In this document: positions 27,625 through 59,483 of the stretch, piece by piece
Numbering within the stretch: position 1 is the stretch's first letter
Layout of the letters: each line of letters opens with the position of its first letter
The notes under the pieces: model-generated
Told to the model about the DNA's origin: nothing
Seen by the model: only the letters and a program-made list of their open reading frames with translations
Databases searched by the model: none
Source of the DNA: Microgenomates group bacterium
GTDB lineage: Bacteria > Patescibacteriota > Microgenomatia > Daviesbacterales > UBA10151
DNA: 64,000 bases
Reading direction: 5' to 3'
Assembly: GCA_041659805.1 (NCBI GenBank)
Contig: JBAZXP010000001.1
Span: forward strand, 64,589 to 128,588
Made by a program: the position numbers and the translations under genes

Positions 27625-27631
27625 ATGATAT

Positions 27632-27748
27632 TCCGGCAATGACATATTGTCCCGGGGCCTTTCGACCCTAGTATCGTCGGCGCTGCAATCTTTGACTGCT
27701 GAGTTCGGGATGGGATCAGGTCGTTCGGTTGCGCTCAAATCACCGGAC
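27632..27748 (-). rRNA. rrf: 5S ribosomal RNA
   Basis: Reverse complement reads TCCGGTGATTTGAGCGCAACCGAACGACCTGATCCCATCCCGAACTCAGCAGTCAAAG...AGCGCCGACGATACTAGGGTCGAAAGGCCCCGGGACAATATGTCATTGCCGGA. Conserved CCCATCCCGAACTCAG and AGCGCCGA.G.TACT blocks with helix I pairing. Confidence 0.8.
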
Positions 27749-30512: not shown

Positions 30513-31011
30513 AATCTGTGAATTATAGGACTTTGATGATATTTTGTCAACCTATAGTGAATTTAGGAGAAATATTTTATTTGTACTTCAAAATGTGAAT
30601 ACGACTTGGGTTAAAGGCTTTTAGCCAAAAAATCTCAACGATGACCATTAGTACTCTTAAGCTAAACACCTTACGATGCTTACACTGAGAGCCTATCAAC
30701 CCGGTAGTCTTCCGGGGGTCTTAAAGATTCCTAATCTCAGGATCTGCTTCGTGCTTAGATGCTTTCAGCACTTATCAGGAAAGAACGTAGCTACCCGGCG
30801 CTGCCATTTTGTGACAACCGGCACACTAGAGGTTCCCTCGTCTCGGTCCTCTCGTACTAGAGACAACTTCCCTCAAGAATCAAAACGCCCATACTGGATA
30901 GAGTCCAACCTGTCTCGCGACGGTTTGAACCCAGCTCGCGTACCACTTTAACTGGCGAACAGCCAGACCCTTGGGACCTTCTACAGCCCCAGGATGTGAT
31001 GAGCCGACATC

Positions 31012-31455
31012 GCTGTCTATTTGTCTATAATTACTTATAGGATCAGACTATACCTTCATCCAAATCGGTATATCAGAAAATCAGAGAATCAGCAGATCAG
31101 AAATATCTGAATCGCCGACTCGCCGAAACACTGACAAACTGAACTGGAGCTAGCCTTTTATTCAAGTTTCCTTCCGGATTATCCGGGACCTTGAATCCCT
31201 CCGATGTTACATCGGAGAAGTCGTTACGGGGCCAAATCCAGAAAATCAGAAGAATCAGAAAATCAGAAGAATCAGAAATTTCACTTTCCGATGTTCCGAT
31301 ATTCAGATTTTCAGATATTCCAAACCTAGTTTCCCTCGGTATTATCCTCACATTACTGTCAGGACTTCACCGATTTTAGCTAGTATTTTTTGTTCAAAAA
31401 GATTTCTAATTGTTATAACAGTGCTACAGAATTACTCCTGCCGCACCCCAATGTT
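31012..31455 (-). mobile_element. ORF-less ~440-bp insertion (putative group I intron or intervening sequence) in 23S rRNA at a position equivalent to E. coli ~2499/2500
   Basis: The conserved GGCACCTC|GATGTCGGCTCATCAC is interrupted here: the exons read GGCACCTC ... [insert] ... GATGTCGGCTC. The insert contains AATCAGAA(G/A) microsatellite repeats and no long ORF. Confidence 0.6.
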
Positions 31456-31496
31456 GAGGTGCCGAACGATACCGTCCTTGTGGACTGTTGGGTATC

Positions 31497-31530
<34 letters not shown>

Positions 31531-31842
31531 ATAAGCCTACTCCCTCCCACGAGGTAAGTAGGGATCACTAAAGCCTGCTTTCGCACCTGCTCGACTTGTA
31601 AGTCTTGCAGTCAAGCACACTGTATACTTTTGCGCTTAAATCTCCGTTGCCATTGGAGATAAGTGTACCTTTGCACTCCTCCGTTACTTTTTTGGAGGAA
31701 ACCGCCCCAGTTAAACTGCCCGCCAGACCTTGTTACGGTGCCAGATAATGGCTACCGCTAGAGATTTAAAAATCTAAAAAAGAGGTGTTTCATTGTCGCC
31801 TAAGCTCCCTCCTACTCTACATAAATAAATTTTCAAACCAGG

Positions 31843-31880
<38 letters not shown>

Positions 31881-31981
31881 AAGTATGGGAAGGCCGCATC
31901 TTCACAGCCACTGCAATTTCGCCGAGTCTATCCTCAAGACAGTTCCTAAGTCGTTCTACCTTTCGTGCGGGTCTGAACTCC

Positions 31982-32383
31982 ATTTTAAAACTGTCATTCT
32001 AAAATGAATATACGCACAACTTTACAGTCGTGGTATCTTCTTCTTCAAGCCTTCGGCTTGTAGAATAAATTTTAGAAGTCTTACATTTGTTTTTATGATT
32101 TAATGATTTTTAAATCCTCTACATCGCTATAGAGATCGGACTATATCTTGCCCCGATTGCTCGGGACTCCAACGTGTAGTCTCTGAGGGTTCCCTTACGG
32201 GCCTTCCCTGCTGATTGACTCCACTGATAGATTGTCACTCTTACGAGTACTATCAGATACTGAGTTATTCCAGCATATAGTTGGATTTTCACTACTTAAG
32301 GTTTTTTGCATACTAATCTAGCAATTTTCAACGAATTCCCGAGTGTTGTACATTGCTGTACATTCTAGCAAGTTTGTTTCCGC
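31982..32383 (-). mobile_element. ORF-less ~400-bp AT-rich insertion (putative group I intron or IVS) in 23S rRNA at a position equivalent to E. coli ~1917
   Basis: Exon sequence CCTTGTCTGGTAGGT...[insert]...GGAGTTCAGACCCGCACGAAAGG corresponds to E. coli CCTTGTCGGGTAAGT|TCCGACCTGCACGAATGG. The intervening ~400 nt has no rRNA homology. Confidence 0.55.
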
Positions 32384-33290
32384 ACCTACCAGACAAGGAA
32401 TTTCGCTACCATAGAACAGTTATAGTTACTGCTGCCGTTCACCAGATCTTAGACCCCTTCCTCGTCCCAAAATTACTTCTGGGAGTCAAGAGAGATTTTA
32501 AATTACTGGCACTGGGCAGGTGTCAGCCCCTATACATCAGCTTTCGCTTTAGCAGGGACCTGTGTTTTTGCTAAACAGTCGCTCAGGATCATTAACTGCG
32601 TCCCACATTGCTGCGGGAAGGACATCTTGCAAACTTACGTCCAGCTTTTGTTGCCGAGTTCCTTAAGGATAGTTCTCTCGATCGCCTGTGTATACTCAAC
32701 TCGCCCACCTGTGTCGGTTTGTGGTACGGCTTGATACTGTCCCCTTTACGAAACTTTTCCTGAAAACAGAATATCATTCACTTACGTATTCGTAACTCGA
32801 ATATGCATTCTGACAAGTCTTGCGACTAATCAGAACGTCCTGACTTGCGTCAGGCTGAGAACGGATTTTGCCTATTCTCACTTCCTTGTCACTTAAACCC
32901 CCATATAGAGGGCTAAATTAATCCCATTTTGTCCTTCCGTAAAGTATGCACGAACAGCACATATACCCGAATTTTGACGGGTATTCCATCGACTACGCCA
33001 TTTGGCCTCGTCTAAGGTACCGATTAACCCTGATCTGATTAACATTGATCAGGAAACCTTGGGCATTCGGCGTTAATGTTTTTCACATTAATTTCGCTAC
33101 TCATACCGGCATTCTCACTTCTATGCGCTCCACCCTGCCTCACGACAAAACTTCACTGCACATAAAACGCTCCCCTACCACGCAACTGATAAATCTCAGT
33201 TGCATCCGTAGCTTCGGTAGAACTTTTAGCCCCGGTTCGTTGTCGGCGCGAAATCCCGTAGTAGACCAGCGAGCTGTTACGCTTTCTTTA

Positions 33291-33327
<37 letters not shown>

Positions 33328-33893
33328 AAGGAATTTCACATCCTTTAACACTTAAAGTTCATTTAGGGACCTTAGCTGTCGGTCTGGGTTGTTTCCCTCA
33401 GGACCGCTCCGCTTAGCCGGATCGGACTGACTCCTGTTACACACGTTAGTATTCGGAGTTTGATTGGATTGACAGTCTTACGACCATCAGATCCATCCAG
33501 TGCTCTACCCCTAACGTGATTGCGCAGGGCTATACCTCAATATATTTCGGGGAGAACCAGCTATCTCCGAGTTCGATAGGCATATCACCTCTAACCACAC
33601 CTCATCCTAGACTATTGATACAGTCACAAGTTCGGGCCTTCCCCGCCTTTTACAGCAGGTTCACCCTGGACATGGTTAGCTCACTCGGTTTCGGGTCTGC
33701 CATATTCTCCTAAATCGCCCGGTTAGGGCTCGCTTTCACTACGCCTACAAACATTACTGTTCTTAGACTTGGAGAATAAGACAACTCACCGGTTCATTCT
33801 TCAAAAGGCACACGGTTCCCTGAATTAAATTCAGGGTTCCGCAGCTTGACAACATACGGTTTCAGGTACTATTTCACTGAGCGTTCCGCTCTT

Positions 33894-33933
<40 letters not shown>

Positions 33934-34735
33934 CGAAAGTATATTTAGCCTTAACAAGTGGTCTTGCTAGCTTCACCCAGGATTACACGTGTCCTAGGTT
34001 ACTCAGGAGTCCGACCACGGCAGTCCAGATTTCGCTTACAGGGCTATCACCCTCTTTGGCATTCCTTTCCAGGAATTTCAGCTATCCGTTCTACTCGCTA
34101 CTGTCGGTCCTACAACCCCACGGGTTTCAAGTATTGCTACCTGAAGTGATCTGTGGTTTGGGCTTTTCCCTTTTCGCTCGCCACTACTAGGGGAATAAAC
34201 TATTGTTCTCTTTTCCTGCGCTTACTTAGATGTTTCAGTTCAGCGCGTACCCCTCCCGACGTTATGAATTGGCGTCGGGATAATTATCGATTAAGATAAT
34301 TGGATTATTCCATTCGGAAACCTCTGGATCATAGCTTCTTAGCAGCTTCCCAGAGACTATCGCGGCTTAGTGCGTCCTTCTTCGGTACTTTCGACCAAGG
34401 CATCCACCGTATGCATTATTGTTGAGTATCTTTTGGCTTGTATTTCAGTTAGTCAGAGTTTCAGAGGATCAGCAAATCAGAAAATTCTGACTCGCCGATT
34501 CGCCGATCTTGCCGACCTGCTGAATAATTTGGCCTTCTTCCCAAAATAGGTTACAGGTTTTAGGTTACAGGTTACAGAATTCTTGCGTTTCCTGTTCACT
34601 GTAAACTGTCCCCTGTTCACTATTTTATAAATCGTATTCACATTTCAAAGTGCAAAAATCCAGATTATCTGGAACTCAGAATACCGGAAGTTAATTCCGA
34701 TGCTCTGAGTTAACAGATCATCCAAACTGTCCCCT

Positions 34736-41419: not shown

Positions 41420-42292
41420 ATTGGAATAACTTAAGGTTGTTTTCCGTTCCCACCCGGCGAGCCGATTTCCGGCACCGGGCGAGCCCTAATGATGCATTAA
41501 TGCTTTTAAATTTCGAATCTTAGTTTCTCCCTCTAAAGTAAAGTGTTCTTTTTTAATGATCATTTTTGAAACTTGAGAAAAAATCTCAAAATCTCTTTTC
41601 TTCTTGGGACTAAGGAGTTGATGCTTATCAAAAAAATCAATCAATTTTAACTTATCTTCGTTCGAGTTTACCTCAAAACGATAACAAGATTGGTGATTTT
41701 TTCTCTTCTCTTTTTGATAATAAATAAAACCAAATCCTAAGTACTTTTTAATAGTTTCTAAAACTAATAAATCATCTTCACGAAGTTTTATATAAAAATG
41801 AGACTTCGCCATAATGTGTGCTTTTGGGTTTTTTGTTTTATCCCTCTCTGTTAAAAGAATATAAAAACATCCTTCTCCATCACTAAGACCAACTATATAG
41901 CTTGCATCTATCATTAGGTAGTTCCCTTCATCACCGCAGCGTAGTATTTTCAGTATAAACTGAACCTAAAACACTGTCAATAACTACTATGAAACTGCTG
42001 ACTTCCTACCAAGCAATTACCTTCTTCTTAGTAGGATCTCCATGGGTTATATATATCACTGTTCCAAACATTCCATTAAAGTTCTTAGACTAATTTGTTA
42101 AGTTTCTCTCAAACCGCCCGATGAGATCACTTATTAAAAGAACTCTTTTTAAAAATGGACTGTTTTTTGTCTCAGGCCCTCCAGCTAAATCAATTACTCA
42201 ATCTAGCCTGCCAATTTTTTTTGACTATCCACCATTGGTGGAGTAGGATTTTAACCTACTAGTTATATATACTGCCACGCGCGCATAAATTT
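41420..42292 (-). mobile_element. insertion (putative group I intron) in 16S rRNA at ~E. coli 1402/1403, carrying a LAGLIDADG homing endonuclease gene
   Basis: Exon junction reconstructs ...CTTGTACACACCGC|CCGTCAAGG... The interrupting ~870 nt contains ORF 41486..41914 in the same orientation as the rRNA. Confidence 0.65.
41486..41914 (-). CDS. single-motif LAGLIDADG homing endonuclease encoded inside the 16S insertion
   Basis: MIDASYIVGLSDGEGCFYIL is the LAGLIDADG motif (GFxDGEGCF type). 142 aa, typical of the I-CreI-like family. Confidence 0.75.
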   Translation of the reverse strand: MIDASYIVGLSDGEGCFYILLTERDKTKNPKAHIMAKSHFYIKLREDDLLVLETIKKYLGFGFIYYQKEKRKNHQSCYRFEVNSNEDKLKLIDFFDKHQLLSPKKKRDFEIFSQVSKMIIKKEHFTLEGETKIRNLKALMHH

Positions 42293-43576
42293 GCGGTGTG
42301 TACAAGAGGCGAGAACGTATTCACCGCGACCTGCTGATTCGCGATTACTAGCAATTCCGACTTCATGAGGTCGAATTTCAGACCTCAATCTGAACTGGGG
42401 CGAAATTTGAGAGATTAGCTTGCCGTTACCGACTTGCAACTCGTTGTTTTTCGCCATTGTAGGGTGTGTGTAGCCCAGGGTGTAAGAGCCGTGCTGACTT
42501 GACGTCATCCGCGCCTTCCTCCCCTCAAAGAGGGGCAGTTCCGCATGAATTATTTAACATACGGTGCGGGTTGCGCTCGTTATCCGACTTAACGGTACAG
42601 CTCACGCCACGAGCTGACGACAGCCATGCAGCATCTGTGCTAGTCTCCTTGCGGATTTTCCCAGTTTCTTGGGAATAGAACTCTAGCATGTCAAACCCTG
42701 GTGAGGTTTTTCGCTTTGTCTCGAATTAAACCACACGCTCCACTGCTTGTGCGCCTCCCCGTCAATTCCTTTGAGTTTTAAACTTGCGTTCGTACTCCCC
42801 AGGCGCTCTGCTTAACGCGTTAGCTTCGACACTGATCCGAAAGGACCAATATCTAGCAGAGATCGTTTACGGCTTGGACTACGCAGGTCTCTAATCTGCT
42901 TCGCTCCCCAAGCTTTCGTGCCTAAGCGTCAAGAATACACCAGATGTCTGACTACTCCTTCGGCGTTCCCGATCATATCAACACATTTCACTGCTCCATG
43001 ATCAGTTCCAACATCCTATTGTATCTTCCAGGCCGATCATATTTTGCCCGAAACCGTGGTTGAGCCACGGGCTTTCAAGCAAAATGCATCGGTCCGCCTA
43101 CGCAACACTTTACGCCCAATAAATCCGGATAACGCTTGCACCCTACGTATTACCGAGGCTTCTGGCACGTAGTTAGCAGGTGCTTATTCTTGTGGTACCG
43201 TCATAATCTTCCCACATAAAAGGAGTTTACAACCCGAGGGCCTTCAATCCTCCACGCGGCGTCGCTCGATCAGGCTTTCGCCCATTGTCGAATATTCCCA
43301 GTTGCTGCCACCCGTAGGTGTATGGGCCGTTCTCAGTCCCATTGTGGCTGACCATCCTCTCAGACCAGCTATCCGTCGTCGCCTTGGTAGGCCATTACCC
43401 CACCAACAAGCTGATAGAACGCGGGCTAATCTCAAAGCGCATTGCTGCTTTACTCTTACGAGCACATGGGAGATTACCCAACCTTTCGGCTGGCTATATC
43501 CCACTTCGAGGTATATTCCCACGCATTACTCACCCGTCCGCCGGTTATCTTGCGATCCCCTTGACTTGCATGCTTA

Positions 43577-43619
<43 letters not shown>

Positions 43620-43802
43620 AATAAAAGTGAATTTGTATCCAGCTCCACTAATAAATCAATGAAGCTTTCAACAAGCTTCACTCAAAGAATTGACAAAAGA
43701 TTATCTCAATAAATTGAGATTGCACTCTTGTTTATCGATTTACCTAGACTTGGTAAATCATTTTCCCACCACTTTTCCGGAATTAAACGCCTAAAAAGGC
43801 AT

Positions 43803-43998: not shown

Positions 43999-45282
43999 TC
44001 AAACAGCTGACCTGCCGGAGAAATTTCTTAAATTTAAAACTGCGTTGGGCTTCGGATTTAGAACTCTTTTAACATCCTCTTCCCCTGCTTCTTGTCCTGA
44101 TTCTGAAATAGTAACAGGAATAAACCTTCTATTTAATTCCCAGCCTTTTTGTAAAATTTCCCATTTGGTTTTTAAACCCAGCTTACCAATTGCTGCAACG
44201 AACAAACGGTAAGCTCCGTCACCCTGATAAAATGGGCTCAAAAAGTCAAGCATATTTTTGGTTAAGATTCCGCTTTTTACTGCCCTGTTTTCTATTTCTG
44301 TTGGCATGCCGGCTGCTACTATCTCAGCATCGATCATCTCTTCCGGAATCCCTTCTACTGCTTTTTTCAAAGCCTCGTCCCTTTTTGCCAAAGCTTCAGC
44401 ATCAAGCACAAATTTATATTGAGGTTTCTTTATTTGCTTTTTTTCCTCCTCTGCTACTTCCTCCTCAATAACTTCTGTTTTTTCAATCTCAGTTACCTTT
44501 TGTTCTGATTTTATTATTGTCTGCTTCATGATTTGAGCAACTGCTTCAGGTTCAGTTCCTGATTGAATTAAAGCTGTTTGTACCAATTCAGTAGCAGAAG
44601 CTTCCTCTATCCCTGCAGTGATTAAACTTTCATAAGTAATACTCGCCTGAATTGCCTCAGGAATTGATATTGGATCTGAAAGAATCTCAGGTAAAATTGA
44701 AGTTACTTCAGATAAAGATGCTAAATTTTCTGCTACTTCCACGATTACATCTTCAGACACCATTTGCTCAATGTTTTGAATAACTAATTCAGGAACAATT
44801 TCCTGAATAATATTTTCTTCAGTCAAAGCTTCCTCAATTTCCCTGTCTAATATTTGCGATAAAGGGGCTTCTAAAATTTCATCAGAAATTTCTACTATTT
44901 CAGGTTCTGAAAAAAAACTGGGTTCGATAATAGATTCTAAATACGAAGACGGAATTAGGATTTCTTCTACAGAATCTTCTGTGAAAGCATCACGGAAAGC
45001 TTGAGGTACCTCATATGTAGGTACGTCAGGATCTAAATTTATATCCGCAAAACTTTCATTAAAGATTGACGGAATTGGAGTTATATCTATTGAAGGGCTA
45101 TTAAAAATATCTATGCTTGGATTAAGTGATCCCCCGCTTAAACCCGACGTTTCGAATGAAGAAAAACTACTAAAAGAGGAGAACTCTGATCCCATCCCGA
45201 TTCCAGGACTGGAAGGCGCAGATATACCCACACCGGCAGAAGAAAAGCCATCGCCTGAGATTGATACTCCTTCGATACTCAT
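43999..45282 (-). CDS. highly acidic, low-complexity hypothetical protein
   Basis: 427 aa. Extremely Glu/Asp/Ile/Ser-rich N-terminal two-thirds with a more ordered C-terminal ~150 aa. No motif. Confidence 0.45.
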   Translation of the reverse strand: MSIEGVSISGDGFSSAGVGISAPSSPGIGMGSEFSSFSSFSSFETSGLSGGSLNPSIDIFNSPSIDITPIPSIFNESFADINLDPDVPTYEVPQAFRDAFTEDSVEEILIPSSYLESIIEPSFFSEPEIVEISDEILEAPLSQILDREIEEALTEENIIQEIVPELVIQNIEQMVSEDVIVEVAENLASLSEVTSILPEILSDPISIPEAIQASITYESLITAGIEEASATELVQTALIQSGTEPEAVAQIMKQTIIKSEQKVTEIEKTEVIEEEVAEEEKKQIKKPQYKFVLDAEALAKRDEALKKAVEGIPEEMIDAEIVAAGMPTEIENRAVKSGILTKNMLDFLSPFYQGDGAYRLFVAAIGKLGLKTKWEILQKGWELNRRFIPVTISESGQEAGEEDVKRVLNPKPNAVLNLRNFSGRSAV

Positions 45283-45986: not shown

Positions 45987-47093
45987 ATGTCAAAAGATAT
46001 TGATTATGATCCGATAAGGAGAAGAATAGTTTTTGGAATACCATTATTAATGGTAGCAGCCGCAGTTGGTGGACTTTCTTGTGATTTTCCAGAATCCAAA
46101 GATAGCAATGTTGAAAAAACCACTGGAATATTACTAGGGCTTAACCAAAATATTGATGAAATTCAGGCAATAAGAGGAAGTGAAAAATGGTCCAAAGTTG
46201 GGACTCGTTATTTTGTAGAGAGAGAAAATGAAACTATTGAGGGTATAGCAGACAGAAATCAAACTACACCTGACAAAATTAGACAACTGAATAAACCAAA
46301 TGGACTTTTTGGGAAAGATATTTTTTCCAGAGGTGAAATATTTTTGGTGCCTGTTAGCCCTACTCCAACCCGTTTTTTTGGTGAACTTTTTGATCAAACT
46401 AGGGAAACTTTAACAAACCTTGAGGGTATTAAGAAAAGTAAAGGTGCTACTTCAACTGAAGCAAAAACATCGGCAGCTCACATTGAAGCAAAATGGTATA
46501 CTGCTCCGGCAAAGTCTGAACCAGTTAAAGCACCTGAAATTGTTGTTGACTTTGAAGTTAATAATATTGACGCCTCCCGCATAACTTCTGAGATTGCTGA
46601 ACTCATTGATCCCCTACCTAAACTAGGACGTTTTGTTAAAAAGATTTCTGTTGTTGATTGGAAAAAATCTCCTAATGGGCTTTTGTTTAACTTTGATCTA
46701 AATGATCCCAGAGCACAAATTACTATACCAACCAGGTTAGGACATGATAAAGAAGACTGGACAAAAGAAATCCGCAGCAGACACTTGGCTGGTTCAATTG
46801 GCAGCTTAATCAGCATTTACCGGGATGATTCTCTTGTCTCTCAGTTTATGCCAAAAACAGAATTAATAAAATTCTTACTTGAATACACCAAAATTGCTGA
46901 TAAAAGAATTGAACTATTTAGTCCAAATGGAACAGCTGCCTTACTGGAAGATGGAGAATTTGCCTGGTCTATTGCCAGCAATTTAACAAAAATAGATAGT
47001 TCTTCTTCAAGCCCCAAAGAAGATAAAATCAGGGATGAAATTTCTGCATTAAACGAAAAATGGCTTTCAACACTGCTTGGCAAAAAACAATAA
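45987..47093 (+). CDS. LysM-like domain protein (paralog A of 52657..53982)
   Basis: 368 aa. LysM-like block ETIEGIADRNQTTPDKIRQLNKP...GEIFLVP. Shares a near-identical ~110-bp DNA segment (46440..46550 vs 53300..53410; STEAKT..A.IEAKW.TAPAKSEPVK.PEI.VD) with the paralog. Confidence 0.55.
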   Translation: MSKDIDYDPIRRRIVFGIPLLMVAAAVGGLSCDFPESKDSNVEKTTGILLGLNQNIDEIQAIRGSEKWSKVGTRYFVERENETIEGIADRNQTTPDKIRQLNKPNGLFGKDIFSRGEIFLVPVSPTPTRFFGELFDQTRETLTNLEGIKKSKGATSTEAKTSAAHIEAKWYTAPAKSEPVKAPEIVVDFEVNNIDASRITSEIAELIDPLPKLGRFVKKISVVDWKKSPNGLLFNFDLNDPRAQITIPTRLGHDKEDWTKEIRSRHLAGSIGSLISIYRDDSLVSQFMPKTELIKFLLEYTKIADKRIELFSPNGTAALLEDGEFAWSIASNLTKIDSSSSSPKEDKIRDEISALNEKWLSTLLGKKQ

Positions 47094-47159
47094 GCACCCA
47101 CAGCTTCAATCAATAGTTGTATTTTCCCTCAAATTATATATATAGTTAAATATATATTT

Positions 47160-48092
47160 ATGGATATACAATCAGATGCTCCAAAAATAACATCTTCAAA
47201 AGTTAATAAACCAATTATTTTTATTCCCTTGATTATATTAATTTTAATTGGGGTATTTTTATATTTTAATAAACAAACTTCTCTTTTTATTGATCCTAAT
47301 ACTATTGATTTAACTAAAGGTAGGGTTATAGATTTAAAGGACAATTTTGGATTTTATATAGAACAAGCACCAGAAGTTTGTGATCAATCTAATTTAAGTA
47401 AATATTTTAAATCTTTTGTGATTCCTGGAAAGAATGGTGAAGCTACTACAAGTGGAGCAATGTCTGTTTATGGAGAAACTACCTGGAATTATATCTTGCA
47501 GGGAGAAATATCTAAAATTGAAACTAACAGCAGTGGTATTAAATATACTTTAGTTAGTGGTGAAAATAAATTAATTACACAAAGCACAAATAACACCACT
47601 ACCTTTTTAAAGAATCCTACAGCCTCACCTAGTAGTAGCTTAGTCCCAACCAAAATTAATGCTTCAACCTTTGCAATAAAAGATAAAGTATATCTGTACT
47701 ATCTAGTTAAATGTGGGGGCAATAAATCACCTCTACTCTTTTTAGAATATATTCAAAAGATTACAGCAAAACAAACCAACACCACAGCAACCAGTTCTGG
47801 ATATTTAAAAATCATGTCTGATGGTTTAGGCAATTTTTACGGACAAGTTAAAGAAAAGGGAGAAAATTATCTGATTTTAGGCAGAGGCACCCAAACTATT
47901 AAGATAATAATTCCTAATAATGTTCCAATTAATATAGTTCCTAAATCTATACTAACTTCAGACGCTGATTTAGCTAAACCACCAACCGAGAGCATATCAT
48001 TATCTTCAGTTAAAATAGGTGATTTTGTCAGTGTTACAGGTAAATATGATGGAAAATTACTAACAGCTGCTTTTATAGCTGTTACTAAATAA
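47160..48092 (+). CDS. N-terminally membrane-anchored extracytoplasmic protein (paralog A of 49775..50764)
   Basis: 310 aa with one N-terminal TM helix. Long conserved blocks are shared with the paralog (YIEQAPEVC.Q.NLS.YFKSF, SVYGETTWNY.LQGEIS.IE.N.SGIKYTLVSGENKLITQS, AIKDKV.LYYLVKCGGNK.PLLFLEYIQK). Confidence 0.55.
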   Translation: MDIQSDAPKITSSKVNKPIIFIPLIILILIGVFLYFNKQTSLFIDPNTIDLTKGRVIDLKDNFGFYIEQAPEVCDQSNLSKYFKSFVIPGKNGEATTSGAMSVYGETTWNYILQGEISKIETNSSGIKYTLVSGENKLITQSTNNTTTFLKNPTASPSSSLVPTKINASTFAIKDKVYLYYLVKCGGNKSPLLFLEYIQKITAKQTNTTATSSGYLKIMSDGLGNFYGQVKEKGENYLILGRGTQTIKIIIPNNVPINIVPKSILTSDADLAKPPTESISLSSVKIGDFVSVTGKYDGKLLTAAFIAVTK

Positions 48093-48096
48093 TTAT

Positions 48097-49713
48097 ATGA
48101 ATTTAAAAATAAAAGCTTTATTAATATTTTCGTTTTTTTCCTTGATGTTATTTGTTTACCCAAAACAAGCTCAAGCATGTGTTTATGGTCCAGACGACAT
48201 GGGATGTGGAGATCCGGAAGGAGTTTGCTGGACAGTTGATGCTGGTGGCAATTGGCATGGAGACCGTACGAGTTGTGGTCAACCTCCTCCACCACCTGAT
48301 TCCCCTGTGGTTACAGGGCATTTAAGAGATTTTTTTTATCAACCCATAGTTGGAAAAGAAGTTAGATGGACAGACAAACTCGGAAATGTCCGTAAATACT
48401 GGACAGACGCAAATGGATACTTTTCTTTTTCCAGCTGGTTAAATATATCAGGAGCTCAGCGTACAGCAGAATATGGCTCTTTCCCAAATGCTCCATGGAC
48501 ATCTAATACCTATCAGTATGAGGCTTTTAGTGCAGCCCAAAATGCTCACACATTTACAGGTATTAAACCTGGCAATTGGTATGGAGCCATGGTTGTCCGT
48601 TCAGGAATTCTTTTAGCTGCCACCCCTGATCCAACTATCATAGATTTGTGGTATAAAAATACTCCTACTGCTTCCATTAATGGTCCTACTTCTGGTTATG
48701 TTGGGACAGCATATAATTTTGCAGCTACGGGTACTGGACCAGGGATAGGAAGAGTACAAGTTTATTGGGCCAGACAGGGTGATACTTTAAGTAGCCCCAC
48801 TGCATGGACTATGGTAAATCAAGTCACTCAGTGTGCTGAAGGCCAATGGCAAAATTGTTGTGATGGAAGCAGTACCTGTACTCTTTATACAGCTTCTTTT
48901 ACCCCTCCTTCAGTAGGATCATATTATATTACTGTTAATTCTTATGCTGATTTCCATACTCCCAGCACAGTCTGTTCAGGTAACCCCTGGATTGATACTG
49001 GCCAGATCACAGGTGTGGCTAGTTGTAATTGGGGCAGTGCTACTGATTGGATATTATTTACTGCTACCAACGCTCCTGTTGATGGAGGCTGGGGTGTAAA
49101 TGGAGGATGGAGTGCTTGTTCTGCTTCTTGTGGTGGTGGGACACAAACCAGAACTTGTAATAGTCCTCCTCCTTCTAATGGTGGGCTGCAGTGTTTAAAA
49201 AATGATGGTTCCAGAGGCCTAACAGATACTCAGAGTTGTAATACACAATGTTGTGCTGTTAATGGTGGTTGGACAGCTTTTGGAGCCTGGAGTAGCTGTT
49301 CTCTAACTTGTGGTGGTGGGACACAAAGTAGAAGCAGATCTTGTACTAATCCTGCTCCTTCTTGTGGTGGGGCTGCCTGTAGTGGGTCTGCCACAGAAAC
49401 CCAAGCCTGTAATACCCAAGCCTGTCCTGTTACTGGAGGCTGGGATCATCCAGAAGATCCTGATGGAAATCCTGCCACACCTGACTGGGGTCTGTGGGGA
49501 GCTTGTTCGTCTAGCTGTGGAGGTGGTACTCAAACCAAAACAAGATATTGTAACAATCCTACACCACAAAATGGTGGTCCAGAATGCAGGAGAGGTAATG
49601 GTACATATACCACCCCTGGAGACAGAACAGAAACTGCAAGTCAAGGATGCAATAATATCCCTTGTTCAGCTTACCTCAAAACCACAGGTGGTGATGTTCA
49701 TGCTAATCAGTAA
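48097..49713 (+). CDS. secreted Cys-rich protein with three C-terminal thrombospondin type-1 (TSP1) repeats (paralog A)
   Basis: 538 aa with a signal peptide. Three repeats match the TSR consensus W..W..CS.(S/T)CGGGTQ.R.R.C..P.P.NGG..C.....C....C: GGWSACSASCGGGTQTRTCNSPPPSNGGLQC..., WTAFGAWSSCSLTCGGGTQSRSRSCTNPAPSCGGAAC...ACP, WGLWGACSSSCGGGTQTKTRYCNNPTPQNGGPEC... Confidence 0.7.
   Translation: MNLKIKALLIFSFFSLMLFVYPKQAQACVYGPDDMGCGDPEGVCWTVDAGGNWHGDRTSCGQPPPPPDSPVVTGHLRDFFYQPIVGKEVRWTDKLGNVRKYWTDANGYFSFSSWLNISGAQRTAEYGSFPNAPWTSNTYQYEAFSAAQNAHTFTGIKPGNWYGAMVVRSGILLAATPDPTIIDLWYKNTPTASINGPTSGYVGTAYNFAATGTGPGIGRVQVYWARQGDTLSSPTAWTMVNQVTQCAEGQWQNCCDGSSTCTLYTASFTPPSVGSYYITVNSYADFHTPSTVCSGNPWIDTGQITGVASCNWGSATDWILFTATNAPVDGGWGVNGGWSACSASCGGGTQTRTCNSPPPSNGGLQCLKNDGSRGLTDTQSCNTQCCAVNGGWTAFGAWSSCSLTCGGGTQSRSRSCTNPAPSCGGAACSGSATETQACNTQACPVTGGWDHPEDPDGNPATPDWGLWGACSSSCGGGTQTKTRYCNNPTPQNGGPECRRGNGTYTTPGDRTETASQGCNNIPCSAYLKTTGGDVHANQ
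48964..49634. repeat. 671-bp block identical to 51663..52333 (TSP1-repeat coding region), copy A
   Basis: Base-for-base identity was read across both copies. Identity begins at agcacagtctgttcagg and ends at acagaacagaaac, then resumes for the last ~50 bp before the stop. Confidence 0.8.
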
Positions 49714-49774
49714 AATTTAGCCAGCAGTTGCATTTTTCCTTAAGATATATATATAGTTAAAGTATACAAGATGT

Positions 49775-50764
49775 ATGCATATTCACAAAAAAGTCAAAGC
49801 TCATATCAAACATCATTTAGAAAAAAGACATAAACATCATATGGATACTTCTTCAAAAATTAAAAAACCAATTGTTTTTGTTCCCCTATTAGTTTTAATC
49901 ATCATAATTTTAGTAGCTGCATTTTTGTATTTTAAAAAAACACCATTTCAGCTAATTTCTTCCAATACCATTGATTTAACTACAGGAAAAGTTACTGATT
50001 TAAAAGATAATCTAGGTCCTTATATTGAACAAGCTCCTGAGGTGTGTAATCAGGATAATTTAAGTGCCTATTTCAAATCGTTTACAGTTTCTATTGAAGC
50101 AGGAAAACCTACTAAAAGTGGAGCGCCATCTGTCTATGGAGAAACAACTTGGAATTATCTACTGCAGGGAGAAATTTCTAACATTGAAGCTAACAACAGT
50201 GGTATTAAATATACTTTAGTTAGTGGTGAAAATAAATTAATTACCCAATCCTTAAATAATACTGTTTCTTTTATTAAAGATATTGCTTCTTCTAGTGGTG
50301 AGTTAACCCCTAAAGTTGTTAATGCTTCTACTTTTGCTATAAAAGATAAAGTTTTTTTATACTACTTAGTTAAATGTGGGGGTAATAAACCTCCTCTGCT
50401 CTTTTTAGAATATATTCAAAAAGCAGCTATTGCATCCCAGCAACCTTCAACAGTTGCTACCAGTTCAGGTGGATTGAGAACCAGAAGTAATAATTGGCAA
50501 GGCTTTAGAGGTACAGTAAAAGAAAAAGGAATAAACTTCTTAGTTTTAATAGGAGGAGGACAAACAATGAAAGTTGAGATTGGTAATAATATCCACTTAC
50601 GGGTAATCGATGAGGCTGAATCTTTGAAAAACCCAGATCTTTACTCTAAACAACCACCACAGGAAACATCAATTTCTGCAGTAAAAATTGGTGAAACAGT
50701 TGATGCAACAGGAGTGATTGATGGAGTAATATTTAAAGCTATGTCTGTTCTTATTATTAGATAA
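49775..50764 (+). CDS. N-terminally membrane-anchored extracytoplasmic protein (paralog B)
   Basis: 329 aa. Same architecture and conserved blocks as 47160..48092. Confidence 0.55.
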   Translation: MHIHKKVKAHIKHHLEKRHKHHMDTSSKIKKPIVFVPLLVLIIIILVAAFLYFKKTPFQLISSNTIDLTTGKVTDLKDNLGPYIEQAPEVCNQDNLSAYFKSFTVSIEAGKPTKSGAPSVYGETTWNYLLQGEISNIEANNSGIKYTLVSGENKLITQSLNNTVSFIKDIASSSGELTPKVVNASTFAIKDKVFLYYLVKCGGNKPPLLFLEYIQKAAIASQQPSTVATSSGGLRTRSNNWQGFRGTVKEKGINFLVLIGGGQTMKVEIGNNIHLRVIDEAESLKNPDLYSKQPPQETSISAVKIGETVDATGVIDGVIFKAMSVLIIR

Positions 50765-50768
50765 AACT

Positions 50769-52412
50769 ATGAATTTAAAAATCAAAACTATAATAATATT
50801 GTTAGCTTTTTTGATTTTTCAGCTAACTTCTCCTAAATTGACTTTTGCTCAATTAAATGAATGTCCTGCTGCTGGATGTGGTTCTTGCGCTCCGTCTGGA
50901 TATGCAGGTGATGCCTGTGGCTCTGGAACTGCTTCTTGTTCAGATGGTAATTGTAATTCTTGGTCTGAATCTTGCTGCTCTACAGGAGGAGCTGCCCCAC
51001 CCTCCTCGCCTGTAGTAGCTGGTTATTTAAAGGATTATTTTTATAACGTTTTACCTGGAAGAGAAGTAAGATGGACTGATAGTCTGGGAAACGTTCGTAA
51101 ACGATGGACCAATGCTAGCGGAGGATATTATTATTCTAGCTGGGCAAATATATCAGGAACAGATCGTTCCAATGAATTAACTGATGGAAGATCCAGCACT
51201 CAGGCCTATGAAGCATACACTGCAACCCAAAACCCCCATACACTTACCGGTATTTTACCATCAGGATGGTTAGGGGTAATGATTCCCTATTCAGGAACTA
51301 CAGCAATTCAATTAGCTGCTACACCTGACCCTACTTTAGTAGATTTATGGTATAAAAATACTCCTACTGCTTCCATTAATGGTCCTACTTCTGGTTATGT
51401 TGGGACAGCATATAATTTTGCAGCTACGGGTACTGGACCAGGGATAGGAAGGGTACAAATTTATTATGCTAATACAAGCGCTACTCTAAGCAATCCGGCT
51501 GCATGGACTTTGGTAAATCAAGTCAACAAGTGTGCTGCCGGCCAATGGCAAAATTGTTGTGACGGAAGCAGTACCTGTACTCTTTACAATGCTTCTTTTA
51601 CTCCTCCCGCAACAGGACAATATTATATTGCAGTAAATTCCTATGCTGATTATGTTAACCCAAGCACAGTCTGTTCAGGTAACCCCTGGATTGATACTGG
51701 CCAGATCACAGGTGTGGCTAGTTGTAATTGGGGCAGTGCTACTGATTGGATATTATTTACTGCTACCAACGCTCCTGTTGATGGAGGCTGGGGTGTAAAT
51801 GGAGGATGGAGTGCTTGTTCTGCTTCTTGTGGTGGTGGGACACAAACCAGAACTTGTAATAGTCCTCCTCCTTCTAATGGTGGGCTGCAGTGTTTAAAAA
51901 ATGATGGTTCCAGAGGCCTAACAGATACTCAGAGTTGTAATACACAATGTTGTGCTGTTAATGGTGGTTGGACAGCTTTTGGAGCCTGGAGTAGCTGTTC
52001 TCTAACTTGTGGTGGTGGGACACAAAGTAGAAGCAGATCTTGTACTAATCCTGCTCCTTCTTGTGGTGGGGCTGCCTGTAGTGGGTCTGCCACAGAAACC
52101 CAAGCCTGTAATACCCAAGCCTGTCCTGTTACTGGAGGCTGGGATCATCCAGAAGATCCTGATGGAAATCCTGCCACACCTGACTGGGGTCTGTGGGGAG
52201 CTTGTTCGTCTAGCTGTGGAGGTGGTACTCAAACCAAAACAAGATATTGTAACAATCCTACACCACAAAATGGTGGTCCAGAATGCAGGAGAGGTAATGG
52301 TACATATACCACCCCTGGAGACAGAACAGAAACAGCCTCTCAATCCTGTAATACTCAGGCTTGTTCAGCTTACCTCAAAACCACAGGTGGTGATGTTCAT
52401 GCTAATCAGTAA
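50769..52412 (+). CDS. secreted Cys-rich protein with three TSP1 repeats (paralog B)
   Basis: 547 aa with a signal peptide. The C-terminal ~270 aa are identical to paralog A (DNA identical over 671 bp). The N-terminal region is diverged but homologous (SPVVAGYLKDYFYN..EVRWTD.LGNVRK.WT). Confidence 0.7.
   Translation: MNLKIKTIIILLAFLIFQLTSPKLTFAQLNECPAAGCGSCAPSGYAGDACGSGTASCSDGNCNSWSESCCSTGGAAPPSSPVVAGYLKDYFYNVLPGREVRWTDSLGNVRKRWTNASGGYYYSSWANISGTDRSNELTDGRSSTQAYEAYTATQNPHTLTGILPSGWLGVMIPYSGTTAIQLAATPDPTLVDLWYKNTPTASINGPTSGYVGTAYNFAATGTGPGIGRVQIYYANTSATLSNPAAWTLVNQVNKCAAGQWQNCCDGSSTCTLYNASFTPPATGQYYIAVNSYADYVNPSTVCSGNPWIDTGQITGVASCNWGSATDWILFTATNAPVDGGWGVNGGWSACSASCGGGTQTRTCNSPPPSNGGLQCLKNDGSRGLTDTQSCNTQCCAVNGGWTAFGAWSSCSLTCGGGTQSRSRSCTNPAPSCGGAACSGSATETQACNTQACPVTGGWDHPEDPDGNPATPDWGLWGACSSSCGGGTQTKTRYCNNPTPQNGGPECRRGNGTYTTPGDRTETASQSCNTQACSAYLKTTGGDVHANQ
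51663..52333. repeat. 671-bp block identical to 48964..49634, copy B
   Basis: See copy A. Offset between copies is 2699 bp. Confidence 0.8.
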
Positions 52413-52656
52413 AATTTAGACACTATTTTCCCTCAAAATTTAACTTCCACAAAAACACATATAACTTAGAAAAAGTATGATATAATAGGAATAATCACTT
52501 ATTATAGGATAAACCTATGATGAGTTAATCTATGAATTTAGATAAAAGTTTGGACGGATCCGTACCAACTAAAACTAGTAACAGTACCCTACCACAGATA
52601 CTGGCGCTTAATAACATTACAGGAAAAACTCTTCTTGGTCAAGGGGGGAAACACTA

Positions 52657-53982
52657 ATGGCCCTAGAAGAACTGTCCCACCTGTTTCCAAAATTACCCTC
52701 AAAGAAGCAAAAAATTATAGGCCCAACCGAGCAGGAAATTGAGGAAGCTAATTCCGGTCAATATAAAGATGGAATAATTACCAGATTTATTAAAAAACAC
52801 CCCTATCTTTCAGCCATAGGCGCAACCAGTGCTGTTGCTGCTGTAGCTTATGAACTAGTACCAGCAATCCATCAGGAAGTGGACTCTCATGTTCAAGATT
52901 TATTTCAAGTTATCAATCTTGAAACTCCTGCTATTGCCGCTAATTCCCCTCGTGCTGAAAAATTACCAGCACCAGAAATGCTTAGCCCTGTAGAAAAAAC
53001 ATATGCAATGCTAACTGATATAAATCAAAAAATTGACTCAATTTATGAAATGAGAGAAAGCTGGAAAATAGGCACTCCTTATCACGTTCAAAAAGGAGAT
53101 ACCCTCACAAATATTGCCGAACAAAACAATACCACTGTAGATAAGATTATGAAATTAAATAAATTCAGTTCAACTAATCTTTTTGAAGGTCAAGTCTTCT
53201 CTATTCCCATTAACCCTGATCCCGCTCCTCATATTGTTACAGTTTTTAACCAGGCAAAGGCAGACTTGACTGAACTTGAAAAAATAAAAAAGGAAAAAGG
53301 AGAAAATTCAACTGAAGCAAAAACATTGGCAGCTAACATTGAAGCAAAATGGCATACTGCTCCGGCAAAATCTGAACCAGTTAAAACTCCCGAAATTATC
53401 GTTGACCCAAGTGTAAAAAATAGCGAGTTTATAGTTCCCCGTATCGAAAAGTTCAATAGCTATTTACTAAAAATTGGGCTCACAGTTGATAGAATTCTTG
53501 TTTTGCCTTGTGACCCATCTTTTCCCTACCCTATGGGTGCAAGAACATTTCCAGATAAAGGGGCTGAAGTCTTGGTTTATGAATATCCTGATTCAAAAAA
53601 CAAACAAGATCTGTGGACAGAAAGACGTTTTTATACAACTCTTTTTCATGAATATAACCATACCATGGATCCATATGAACCATACGCCGCCCGTAATTTT
53701 ACCCCTGAACAACTGGTTAATACTGTCTTTGAAGACACTCAAATTTCTAATGATAGCTACAAGGTTTACCCTGAAACTTCACGAGTAATGCTACATAGTG
53801 AAGCATCAGCCTGGGAGGGAGTAATTTTACTTACCACAAATCCTAAAGCTATATCTACCTCACCAGACAGAGAAATAGAAAAAAGAGAGCTTGATTATGC
53901 CAATAAACGACTTTCAATAATCCTGGAACCTGAAATAGCCTTCTCAAAAATAGGTGAAGAGCTTGGGGTACAACCTAATTAA
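52657..53982 (+). CDS. LysM domain protein (paralog B)
   Basis: 441 aa. LysM block YHVQKGDTLTNIAEQNNTTVDKIMKLNKFSSTNLFEGQVFSIP. Shares the STEAKT...IEAKWHTAPAKSEPVK segment with 45987..47093. Confidence 0.55.
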   Translation: MALEELSHLFPKLPSKKQKIIGPTEQEIEEANSGQYKDGIITRFIKKHPYLSAIGATSAVAAVAYELVPAIHQEVDSHVQDLFQVINLETPAIAANSPRAEKLPAPEMLSPVEKTYAMLTDINQKIDSIYEMRESWKIGTPYHVQKGDTLTNIAEQNNTTVDKIMKLNKFSSTNLFEGQVFSIPINPDPAPHIVTVFNQAKADLTELEKIKKEKGENSTEAKTLAANIEAKWHTAPAKSEPVKTPEIIVDPSVKNSEFIVPRIEKFNSYLLKIGLTVDRILVLPCDPSFPYPMGARTFPDKGAEVLVYEYPDSKNKQDLWTERRFYTTLFHEYNHTMDPYEPYAARNFTPEQLVNTVFEDTQISNDSYKVYPETSRVMLHSEASAWEGVILLTTNPKAISTSPDREIEKRELDYANKRLSIILEPEIAFSKIGEELGVQPN

Positions 53983-57965: not shown

Positions 57966-59483
57966 ATGCAAAAATTTCTGTCTAAATTAACACATAAAAC
58001 AATAATCCTAATGTTAGCCTTGATTATTGTAGGACTTGCTACTCCTGTAATTAACAAACAATTTAATATTGGTCCCAAATTAAGCAGGATGGGTGGTGAA
58101 GTTGCTGGAGTATTGATAGAAAATACCACTGAAAAGTTTTTGGGTACTGCCAACATAGTTGGAGCTGTAGGTACAGCCCCCTATCAAACAATAGGAGGTG
58201 AAGTTTCTATTGCAGGTGCGATACGTATGGATACCGGTGGATATATAATCGGAGAACCAACTTATGGAGTCAGACTTAATAACTCTTTAAACACATTAAA
58301 TTTAATCGTTGCTAAAAATGACGGAACTGTTTATATGCCCAGCGGTAAGGTTGGTATAGGGATAACTAGTCCAGGGTATCAACTTGATGTCAAAGGGGCT
58401 AATGATACAGAACTCATCTCTTGGAAAAATGCTGGTGGATACCTATTGGGCACTCTAGGCAGGGCAACAAATGGAGCATACAATTCAGGAGGATTACAAA
58501 TAAAATCAGATGGCACAACAACACAGGTTTATTTAACCGGTAGCGGGAACTCTTATATAAATCAAGGTAAATTTGGTATTGGAACAGCAACACCTACAGA
58601 CAAACTGAATATTAATCAGAATTGGTTTGATAACAGCACAACTGATTGGGGAGGTGGTATTAAAATGGAAGGAAACAATCCTACTATTGGTTTTTGGGAA
58701 ACAGATAATGGTGCCCATCGATGGATGTGGCATCTTTCTAGTGACATTATGAACCTTTATAGAAGACCTGTCGGAGGCGGATGGGAAAGGAAATTATATG
58801 TAGAGAATAATGGGAATGTTACTGCTACAAGTTTTACTGGTAATTTAAATGGTAATGCCACTTATGCTACCACAGCTGGTAGTGCTCCTGCTTCTGACGT
58901 ACCCTCACAATCAAAAAATTTGAATCAATGGGTAAACACTGATTCTGCGCCTACTTTTGCTTATCTAAATGGAACTTCAATTCTTACGGAACCATATTGG
59001 TTCCATCATCAAGGCGATGCAAATTTAGTTATAAGAAATAGGTATGATGGTTTTGTCATGTGGGCTGCGTCTTACACCGGCACTGCCTGGAAATCAGATA
59101 TCAGACTAAAGGAAAATATCAAACCGCTTGGTGACTCTCTGGATAAATTAAATCAACTCCAATCTGTTAGTTTTGACTGGAAAGAACATAAACCTGCTCC
59201 CTATCATGATAATGCTCCTTTAGGTTTTATTGCTCAGGAGTTAGAAAAAATATATCCGGAATTAGTTTATGAAGATAGTCTAACAGGTATGAAAATGATT
59301 GATTATGGTGGCTTAACCGCACCAATAATCAAATCTATCCAGGAACTGGATAATAAAATTTCGTATCTTTGGAATATGATAACCTCTGCTTCTGAAAGAA
59401 TAGATGCTCTGACCAAACAAGTCAACAGCCAACAAAACGAAATTAATGCCCTGAAAGCTGAAATAGAAAATTTAAAGAAATAA
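57966..59483 (+). CDS. tail-fibre-like protein with C-terminal intramolecular chaperone (Peptidase S74) domain and coiled coil
   Basis: 505 aa. N-terminal anchor. G.(V/F)GIGT..P..(L/K)(D/N)(V/I) motifs. C-terminus SDIRLKENIKPLGDSLDKLNQLQSVSFDWKEH...GFIAQELEKIYPELVYED...MIDYGGLTAPIIKSIQELDNKI matches the S74 consensus. Coiled-coil tail. Confidence 0.7.
   Translation: MQKFLSKLTHKTIILMLALIIVGLATPVINKQFNIGPKLSRMGGEVAGVLIENTTEKFLGTANIVGAVGTAPYQTIGGEVSIAGAIRMDTGGYIIGEPTYGVRLNNSLNTLNLIVAKNDGTVYMPSGKVGIGITSPGYQLDVKGANDTELISWKNAGGYLLGTLGRATNGAYNSGGLQIKSDGTTTQVYLTGSGNSYINQGKFGIGTATPTDKLNINQNWFDNSTTDWGGGIKMEGNNPTIGFWETDNGAHRWMWHLSSDIMNLYRRPVGGGWERKLYVENNGNVTATSFTGNLNGNATYATTAGSAPASDVPSQSKNLNQWVNTDSAPTFAYLNGTSILTEPYWFHHQGDANLVIRNRYDGFVMWAASYTGTAWKSDIRLKENIKPLGDSLDKLNQLQSVSFDWKEHKPAPYHDNAPLGFIAQELEKIYPELVYEDSLTGMKMIDYGGLTAPIIKSIQELDNKISYLWNMITSASERIDALTKQVNSQQNEINALKAEIENLKK

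Follow-up and report, generated by a model that had tools for sequence, protein, structure and literature searches.

A Microgenomates locus pairing membrane-anchored proteins with secreted, thrombospondin-repeat-bearing stalk proteins: a candidate two-gene surface module

Thrombospondin type-1 repeats (TSRs; Pfam family TSP_1, PF00090) are usually treated as adhesion modules of animals and apicomplexans. The eukaryotic superfamily includes thrombospondin-1, properdin, UNC5, ADAMTS, the apicomplexan proteins TRAP and MIC2, and the invertebrate "coadhesin-like" proteins, and in one review TSP1 is regarded as an adhesion domain of animal type which apicomplexans acquired laterally (PMC3417536). 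Here, we describe a locus in a stretch of 64,000 nucleotides (nt) from a Microgenomates group bacterium (assembly GCA_041659805.1, contig JBAZXP010000001.1, positions 64,589 to 128,588 of the forward strand; "the window"), in which two secreted proteins, TSP-A and TSP-B, carry repeats of this same Pfam family and are each encoded directly downstream of a membrane-anchored partner, AnchA or AnchB. With the eukaryotic proteins they share the six-Cys framework, the Trp and Arg/Lys ladder residues in register, the tandem arrays and the (predicted) extracellular location, and with properdin also the positions of extra Cys residues in the first and second repeat. Unlike the eukaryotic proteins, they possess a Sec signal peptide, a PKD/Ig-like stalk and a C-terminal tail specific to the Candidate Phyla Radiation (CPR); they lack vWA, EGF or other eukaryotic partner domains, their repeats are not strongly basic, and C-mannosylation and O-fucosylation are not expected in them.

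On the bacterial side, the closest described proteins are adhesins of the MSCRAMM type and of the Bap/SiiE/LapA type, which are generally known to be secreted and to project a distal binding module on a beta-sandwich stalk, with lineage-specific variation of the tip. TSP-A and TSP-B resemble these in layout but are devoid of an LPXTG/sortase signal, a type I secretion system, an autotransporter or an S-layer homology (SLH) anchoring element; instead, each is encoded next to a dedicated membrane partner of the single-pass type, and both end in a novel C-terminal tail. Polymorphic toxins of the Rhs and CdiA types, as described in PMC3482391, provide an analogy only, in that a constant N-terminal part is combined with variable modules exchanged by recombination and with tandem paralogues. 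In contrast to that description, the locus contains no toxin/immunity genes, its variable part is internal, between stalk and tail, and its modules are binding domains.

Host recognition and attachment by CPR bacteria are described as largely unexplained outside the type IV pili of Saccharibacteria. Microgenomates have no cultured representatives, and for this group a lineage-specific surface protein that is duplicated, recombines and bears exchangeable binding tips offers a concrete candidate for a host-recognition factor. As a kind, TSP-A and TSP-B belong to the known modular surface or adhesion proteins of bacteria, in which TSRs are uncommon yet not unprecedented; the novelty lies in a very narrow family of anchor and stalk proteins, not described before, that has a peculiar conserved C-terminal tail.

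TSRs on a conserved pair of anchor and stalk genes

Six open reading frames (ORFs), all on the + strand, make up the locus in the order LysM-A, AnchA, TSP-A, AnchB, TSP-B, LysM-B; ORF calling reproduced the order and the coordinates of the first-pass annotation exactly. The four central genes are as follows.

47160..48092, + strand: AnchA, single-pass membrane protein, predicted N-in/C-out
48097..49713, + strand: TSP-A, secreted protein of 538 amino acids (aa) with 30 Cys
49775..50764, + strand: AnchB, paralogue of AnchA (58% aa identity)
50769..52412, + strand: TSP-B, secreted paralogue of TSP-A, 547 aa with 34 Cys

Both secreted proteins are acidic (isoelectric point, pI, ~5.3) and have cleavable signal peptides. 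In TSP-A, the signal peptide (aa 1-27) is followed by a Cys-rich segment (28-70), a putatively prealbumin-like domain 1 (aa 71-190) and a putative PKD/Ig-like domain 2 (aa 191-330), before the three TSRs and the C-terminal tail are reached. The repeats and tails are located at the following positions.

49087..49665, + strand: the three TSRs of TSP-A (Pfam TSP_1 E=1.5e-20, 7yyk E=5e-37, Cys map)
49087-49257, + strand: TSR1 of TSP-A
49258-49428, + strand: TSR2 of TSP-A
49429-49665, + strand: TSR3 of TSP-A, with an insertion
51786-52364, + strand: the TSRs of TSP-B
49666..49710, + strand: C-terminal tail of TSP-A, SAYLKTTGGDVHANQ, with the stop codon directly after it
52365-52409, + strand: C-terminal tail of TSP-B

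The TSP_1 profile, with a curated gathering threshold of 21.6 bits, scored 73.6 bits for TSP-A and 69.9 bits for TSP-B (E=2.1e-19), with three stretches in each protein. In profile searches against the PDB, the C-terminal 209 residues matched human thrombospondin-1 (7yyk, E=5.3e-37; 1lsl, E=5e-31) and human properdin (1w0r, E=4.8e-35) from end to end, and the six Cys of each repeat, the strand-A Trp and the strand-B Arg align in register with 7yyk and 1w0r. By these profile scores and alignments, the repeats of TSP-A and TSP-B are genuine TSRs, far beyond chance, as had been proposed in the first-pass annotation. Two of its details have to be amended. The TSR peptide which it quoted as containing 6 Cys contains 7, and extra Cys residues are found in TSR1 (C386) and TSR2 (C423), at the positions of those of properdin. 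The W-x-x-W ladder is correct for TSR3 (WGLW) but not for TSR2, which reads WxxFxxW, nor for TSR1, which reads WxxxxxW. At the level of sequence only, the TSR2 ladder is formed by W392/F395/W398 with R412/R414, that of TSR3 by W464/W467 with K481/R483, and that of TSR1 by two Trp six residues apart (GGWGVNGGWSAC) together with a single Arg in a shortened strand B.

The membrane partners each have one N-terminal transmembrane helix (~aa 18-40 in AnchA), a basic ectodomain (pI ~9.3) and two invariant Cys, in agreement with the annotation of a paralogous, N-terminally anchored partner for each TSR gene. The AnchA ectodomain is beta-rich and ends in a putative OB-fold-like domain. A His/Lys-rich cytoplasmic N-terminus (MHIHKKVKAHIKHHLEKRHKHH) opens AnchB (49775-49850) and all anchor orthologues and is missing from AnchA. 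The anchor family is tiny: a collection of 5.8 billion proteins contains just five clusters of it, and these come without exception from Microgenomates or Candidatus Daviesbacteria. When metagenomes were scanned for the anchor, the sole match was on a contig of the same organism. Neither Pfam nor NCBIfam nor PHROGs holds a family for the anchors; for the stalk, NCBIfam and PHROGs hold none, and TSP-A as such has no PHROGs match. PDB profile searches with the anchor or with the stalk yielded no match below E=0.1.

An anchor gene lies directly upstream of a stalk gene, at a distance of 2-4 nt, in 6/6 pairs from about five genomes, all of them Microgenomates or Daviesbacteria-like; these are the pairs A and B of the window, those of L001, L002/L008 and L005 (a 1.1-Mb Daviesbacteria contig), and that of L007, which is itself tandem. 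The start of the second gene 2-4 nt after the stop codon of the first makes co-translation of the two probable. When the N-terminal 346 positions outside the TSRs were used in an exhaustive profile search, the complete stalk was recovered from only 4 cluster representatives (P0001, which is the window protein, P0039, P0096 and P0126) among 1.84 billion, and the two halves of the stalk occurred separately in ~44 other proteins; this search supersedes a word-indexed one, in which the N-terminal part without TSRs had returned the query's own cluster only.

Among these relatives, P0039 (L001) possesses TSRs, the first of which contains the same unusual "LKxDGSRGLTD" insertion as TSR1 of the window. 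P0096 and P0126 have the same stalk, the same tail and the same anchor partner, but Pro/Thr linkers and an unclassified domain without a TSP_1 match; hence, the TSRs are an exchangeable module. In the L007 copy, yet another distal part takes their place. Read from these comparisons, the architecture combines a stalk and a tail that stay constant with modules that can be exchanged. The unit that had been annotated as TSR protein, membrane partner and LysM protein is, thus, to be redefined: the conserved unit is anchor plus stalk protein, and the TSRs are its cargo, not the defining feature of the system. As a separate observation, a module of ~90 aa ("ISWTN..PVT[FW]VDIS...YYVRLYNG"; no Pfam match) is common to several CPR secreted proteins, occurring in P0096 (aa ~510-600), in P0126 (aa ~440-530) and, in several copies, in the ORF of locus L013; in the orthologues of TSP-A and TSP-B it stands where the TSRs stand.

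In all five family members whose C-terminus is complete, the last residues conform to the consensus [FY]LKTxGGDVHxN[QR], and the stop codon comes next. The same tail, of 13-15 constant residues, terminates P0039, P0096, P0126, the L013 protein and a protein of L007 (L007:1-1200), and in the upstream L007 copy the motif is followed by 11 further residues. A sorting signal of the sortase, exosortase or rhombosortase type was not found; the proteins end 3 residues past GGDVH (…GGDVHANQ) and have no C-terminal hydrophobic segment. The tail itself could be a docking or sorting signal.

The anchor and stalk pair is present twice, as a tandem unit of ~2.67 kb that consists of a promoter-like motif, the anchor gene and the secreted gene. 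The AT-rich motif, TTGYATTTT..CCYT.A.AT..ATATATATAGTTAAA, precedes each anchor gene, is found in part after TSP-B and marks the unit boundaries. A promoter role is putative only, and scans for promoters and terminators were not usefully above shuffled expectation. The elements of the duplication are listed below.

47115..47154, + strand: promoter-like motif 5' of AnchA, left boundary of unit A, 85% identical to 49726-49766
49726..49766, + strand: second copy of the promoter-like motif, 5' of AnchB
52424-52437: partial promoter-like motif, a 14-nt core after TSP-B
48964..49634, + strand: 671-nt tract of TSP-A identical to 51663-52333 of TSP-B, a gene-conversion tract

Synonymous divergence (dS) between the two units is 0.93 in the anchors and ~1.1 over TSP codons 1-168, decreases to 0.35 over codons 169-300 and is 0 over codons 301-500. 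The duplication is old, as dS is close to 1 both in the anchors and in the 5' parts of the TSP genes, and as AnchB has a higher identity with P0124, the Daviesbacteria anchor (63%), than with AnchA. This profile of divergence, with none left over the 671 nt of the TSR region, indicates that the 3' part of the TSP genes, including all TSRs, has recently been homogenised by gene conversion, for which the first-pass annotation had argued as well. Directly after the tract follows a 26-nt island (49635-49660 vs 52334-52359) with 13 mismatches (QGCNNIPC vs QSCNTQAC), for which an intragenic donor was looked for and none found, and then 60 further identical nt (49661-49720), which run beyond the stop codon.

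Proposed display on the cell surface, and release as an alternative

We favour the reading that the locus encodes a lineage-specific two-gene surface module of Microgenomates (Daviesbacteria-like CPR), of which this genome holds two copies from an old tandem duplication, and assign this reading as a whole a probability of roughly 60%. The first gene of the presumably co-transcribed pair encodes a single-pass (type II) membrane protein with its beta-rich ectodomain predicted to face outward, and the second a Sec-secreted, disulfide-rich protein with a constant stalk, variable distal modules and a constant tail. The anchor ectodomain would hold the secreted protein on the cell surface, so that the distal modules, here TSRs, could bind surface or envelope structures of the host or partner cell that episymbionts of this kind need. 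Recombination among paralogues and orthologues, possibly with the stalk end and the tail as homology arms, would diversify or homogenise the tips. On this reading, the TSRs belong to a pool of such modules that circulates in CPR bacteria, in DPANN archaea and in bacteria with a predatory or intracellular way of life. The most likely function would be that of a diversifiable surface protein for host attachment.

A bolder version holds that stalk and LKTxGGDVHxN tail constitute an undescribed display system of Microgenomates, in which the tail, as a new docking or sorting signal, is read by the anchor and the constant ends serve as recombination arms through which host-binding cassettes, TSRs among them, are swapped. 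We consider this version quite unlikely. If it were true, episymbionts would have a diversifiable host-recognition organ, TSRs would be an old adhesion module of episymbionts (CPR, DPANN) and predators (Bdellovibrionota, Myxococcota), and the question whether the "animal" TSR arose in prokaryotes would be reopened.

Several points weigh against the favoured reading. With only about five genomes carrying the pair, the conservation statistics are thin. The structure model of the anchor is mediocre (predicted local distance difference test, pLDDT, 62), and the AlphaFold2 model of TSP-A, computed from a 9-sequence alignment, has a pLDDT of 45 overall and of ~35 over the TSRs, where, at this low confidence, two beta-strands of each repeat fall in the places in which strands B and C are expected. 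The pI values of the three TSRs (~7.7, 7.7 and 4.7) are not markedly basic, unlike those of the heparin-binding TSRs of thrombospondin-1. Locus L013 (L013:1595-4219) encodes an 874-aa TSR protein of different architecture that ends in the same tail without an adjacent anchor, which weakens the idea of the tail as an anchor-docking element. Finally, domain identities, conservation of the gene pair, swapping of modules, the pattern of conversion and the distribution in prokaryotes are shown, and most of the uncertainty lies in the steps that we infer, namely binding of the secreted protein by the anchor, its display at the surface, adhesion and any part played by the LysM proteins.

The alternative that survives best is that the secreted protein is released, as a matrix component, an S-layer-associated protein or a soluble binding factor, while the membrane protein acts as a helper of maturation, export or folding, or as a regulator. 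Such a role would suit the lack of a covalent anchoring signal on the secreted protein, its 30-34 Cys, which may need assisted oxidative folding, a weak, sub-threshold match of AnchA to LiaF-like_C (E=0.036), and the anchor-free occurrence of the tail in L013. However, the strict 2-4 nt adjacency and the joint duplication of anchor and secreted genes fit a stoichiometric complex, and the anchor ectodomain contains no recognisable catalytic or chaperone family. Release is, in our opinion, unlikely.

LysM proteins as conserved neighbours

The duplicated pair is bracketed by two LysM-type genes.

45987..47093, + strand: LysM-A, with an N-terminal hydrophobic anchor (aa 12-34) and a degenerate LysM, no HExxH
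52657..53982, + strand: LysM-B, with a LysM domain and an unclassified C-terminal domain containing HExxH

Of the two LysM assignments made beforehand, that of LysM-B is clear (aa 142-184, nt 53080-53208; 54.2 bits, E=1.4e-14, full-length match 1-43/43), while LysM-A, with 19.5 bits and a partial match (5-28/43), remains just under the PF01476 gathering threshold of 20.9 bits. Its homology to LysM-B over 328 aa, at 35% identity, identifies it as a degenerate LysM paralogue. The 110-bp identical segment that the two genes were said to share is, in fact, a patch of 100 nt at 91% identity (46451-46550 vs 53307-53406), seen as a 40-codon stretch of low divergence (dS 0.29). In the Daviesbacteria genome (L005), both LysM types lie side by side, upstream of a single anchor-stalk pair; LysM-A is 26-31% identical to both LysM proteins of this genome and LysM-B is 41% identical to its 447-aa LysM protein, and the flanks of the locus again include the SpoU methylase known from the window, as well as a sugar epimerase/dehydratase. 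This arrangement, together with a dS of ~1.3 between LysM-A and LysM-B, implies that the LysM genes are conserved neighbours which were not co-duplicated. The duplicated cassette of the first-pass annotation is, therefore, to be restricted to the anchor/TSP pair, with the LysM genes as old paralogues outside the duplication.

The canonical LysM of LysM-B matches the LysM portions of models for DipM, MltD and endolysins. Unlike in DipM, p60/LytE-type proteins and phage endolysins, the matches cover the LysM only, the C-terminal domain of LysM-B being unclassified and without a Pfam match even at E<=10; among PHROGs, LysM-B matches through its LysM domain only, and LysM-A and the anchors have no match. 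The HExxH motif of this domain reads HEYNH (nt 53647-53661) and, at the same column of the L005 orthologue (L005:8592-9935), HENMH; it is absent from LysM-A-type paralogues. The domain may be an undescribed LysM-linked metallopeptidase, judging by the motif. In L001, the gene after P0039 (L001:3126-4022) encodes a membrane-anchored, metzincin-like protein with HESLHAIGLQH and SIMY motifs and a weak Peptidase_M10 match (E=8e-4). A functional link of LysM-B and the metzincin-like protein to the anchor-stalk pair is possible.

A different function would follow if the LysM/HExxH protein were a peptidoglycan-directed metallopeptidase and the whole block of LysM, anchor and TSR genes one functional unit for cell-wall attack or remodelling, in which the TSR protein would target the metallopeptidase, or the cell, to the host envelope. 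The strong LysM match of LysM-B, the HExxH kept in the Daviesbacteria orthologue, the position of both LysM genes next to the pair in that genome and the metzincin-like neighbour in L001 are in line with such a unit. Yet for the C-terminal domain of LysM-B there is no match to any peptidase family, HExxH comprises only 5 residues and is found in only two sequences, the L002 pair is followed by an epimerase gene and not by a LysM or peptidase gene, and the LysM genes did not take part in the duplication. We regard a cell-wall-directed unit as very unlikely compared with a display module that has LysM genes for neighbours.

TSRs in other prokaryotes and the bacterial source of the locus

One genome per GTDB species was scanned with only two exact peptide patterns, both taken from an alignment of TSRs. 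Of 479 pattern matches, 310 were confirmed as TSR stretches by tblastn, so that prokaryotic TSRs number at least 310. Organisms were tallied for the best 80 confirmed loci, ranked by similarity to a CPR repeat, and the following proportions are, hence, biased to CPR-like sequences.

CPR: 18/80 loci
Myxococcota / "Deltaproteobacteria": 11/80 loci
Bdellovibrionota and relatives: 10/80 loci
DPANN archaea: 8/80 loci
Rickettsiales: 4/80 loci
Planctomycetales: 3/80 loci
Omnitrophota: 2/80 loci
Other or unclassified: 24/80 loci

These TSRs sit in long, uninterrupted ORFs of unrelated architectures. A single ORF of Candidatus Shapirobacteria (L053; JAHFKH010000041.1, ORF containing 4001-4150), for instance, joins two TSP_1 repeats, fn3 and Sortase (E=6.5e-14, 5.7e-12 and 7.1e-16, respectively), a fusion that can only be bacterial. 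The secreted TSR proteins from metagenome-assembled genomes of CPR, DPANN archaea, Bdellovibrionota, Myxococcota and Rickettsiales have modules that are 60-79% identical, whereas stalk and anchor are in none of the 80 fetched loci and the tail is in L013 only. To call TSRs very rare in bacteria, as was done at first, is accordingly an overstatement. In the literature searched, prokaryotic TSRs of these lineages were not described, which is not proof of absence; their recurrence across episymbiotic and predatory prokaryotes is apparently unreported and offers a lead on a shared module for cell-cell attachment and on the evolutionary origin of the domain.

Capture of the TSRs from an animal or protist host in recent times, with a protein that targets or mimics the eukaryotic extracellular matrix, was also considered. 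The majority of database matches are animal proteins, TSR2 is up to 70% identical to "coadhesin-like" repeats of molluscs and ctenophores, and the O-fucosylation-type consensus CxxS/TCG is contained in TSR1, TSR2 and TSR3 (the C-mannosylation consensus WxxW in TSR3 only). However, CxxS/TCG is part of the TSR fold's own signature, and the modifying enzymes, POFUT2 for O-fucosylation and DPY19 for C-mannosylation, are enzymes of the eukaryotic endoplasmic reticulum. Repeats from CPR and DPANN genomes are as close or closer to those of the window: TSR2 is 79% identical to a repeat of Woesearchaeota and 75% to one of Magasanikbacteria, vs 70% for the best animal repeats. Nearest-neighbour identities (79% vs 70%) do not discriminate between a prokaryotic and a eukaryotic origin of the TSR, and the two comparison sets were also chosen in different ways. 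TSR1 and TSR3 are equidistant from prokaryotic and animal repeats. GC content at third codon positions is 0.23 in the TSR segment, the same as the genome background, and this, together with the closer or equal CPR and DPANN repeats, leaves no evidence for recent capture from a eukaryote. The TSR1 insertion shared with P0039, a protein from another metagenome, shows that the module is older than this strain. Many prokaryotes possess TSRs within architectures that are purely bacterial, and no eukaryotic host is indicated. The suggestion that the repeats were acquired from, or mimic, a eukaryotic host is, thus, unsupported, and we rate recent capture as still less likely than a cell-wall-directed unit.

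The bacterial source of the contig is documented by the window itself, which carries 16S, 23S and 5S ribosomal RNA (rRNA) genes and three tRNA genes, and by typical CPR genes on the same contig.

30629-34429: 23S rRNA gene, split by a group I intron
42234-43625: 16S rRNA gene

The rRNA genes (27631-27747, 30629-34429, 42234-43625) are unlinked, with protein-coding genes in between, and the 23S rRNA gene reaches 3.8 kb through the group I intron (32117-32376) and further extra length; both features are typical of CPR. P0001, a partial protein that is 100% identical to the window protein, carries the NCBI label "Microgenomates group bacterium", its source being a metagenome-assembled genome, and the cluster of the anchor is recorded on a 1.13-Mb contig. 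Taken together with the rRNA genes, these records exclude eukaryotic contamination, in line with the bacterial assignment made in the first-pass annotation.

The junction from the TSP-A 3' end through AnchB to the TSP-B 5' end is real, since window 49512-51785 recurs at 100% identity in an independent short-read contig of the Joint Genome Institute (JGI; L089). Within the identical tract, both of two independent short-read assemblies are broken, with P0001 ending at aa 330 and L089 at the borders given; breaks inside the tract are the behaviour expected of a genuine repeat and, thus, confirm the A-to-B junction. The interior of the tract (49087-49511) is supported by the source assembly alone. 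Although 671-nt perfect repeats are difficult to assemble and this interior lies outside the independent contigs, eukaryotic contamination, a chimeric contig and an assembler-made duplication are rejected with near certainty, given the rRNA and typical CPR genes on the contig, the JGI contig across the A-to-B junction, the strong divergence of the two copies in the TSP 5' halves and anchors, and the homologous loci in other assemblies.

Further genes of the window deserve mention. Between the 16S rRNA gene and the SpoU methylase lies a gene on the - strand (43999-45282) for a highly acidic, Ser/Glu/Ile-rich protein of 427 aa, which has no Pfam match. Additional large putative surface proteins are encoded near the locus (10042-15891, 3280-9627 and 57966-59483), comprising an ORF of 1949 aa with six Laminin_G_3 domains, an ORF of 2115 aa that combines an N-terminal MerR helix-turn-helix with a Peptidase_S74 (endosialidase chaperone) domain, and a Peptidase_S74 protein of 505 aa.

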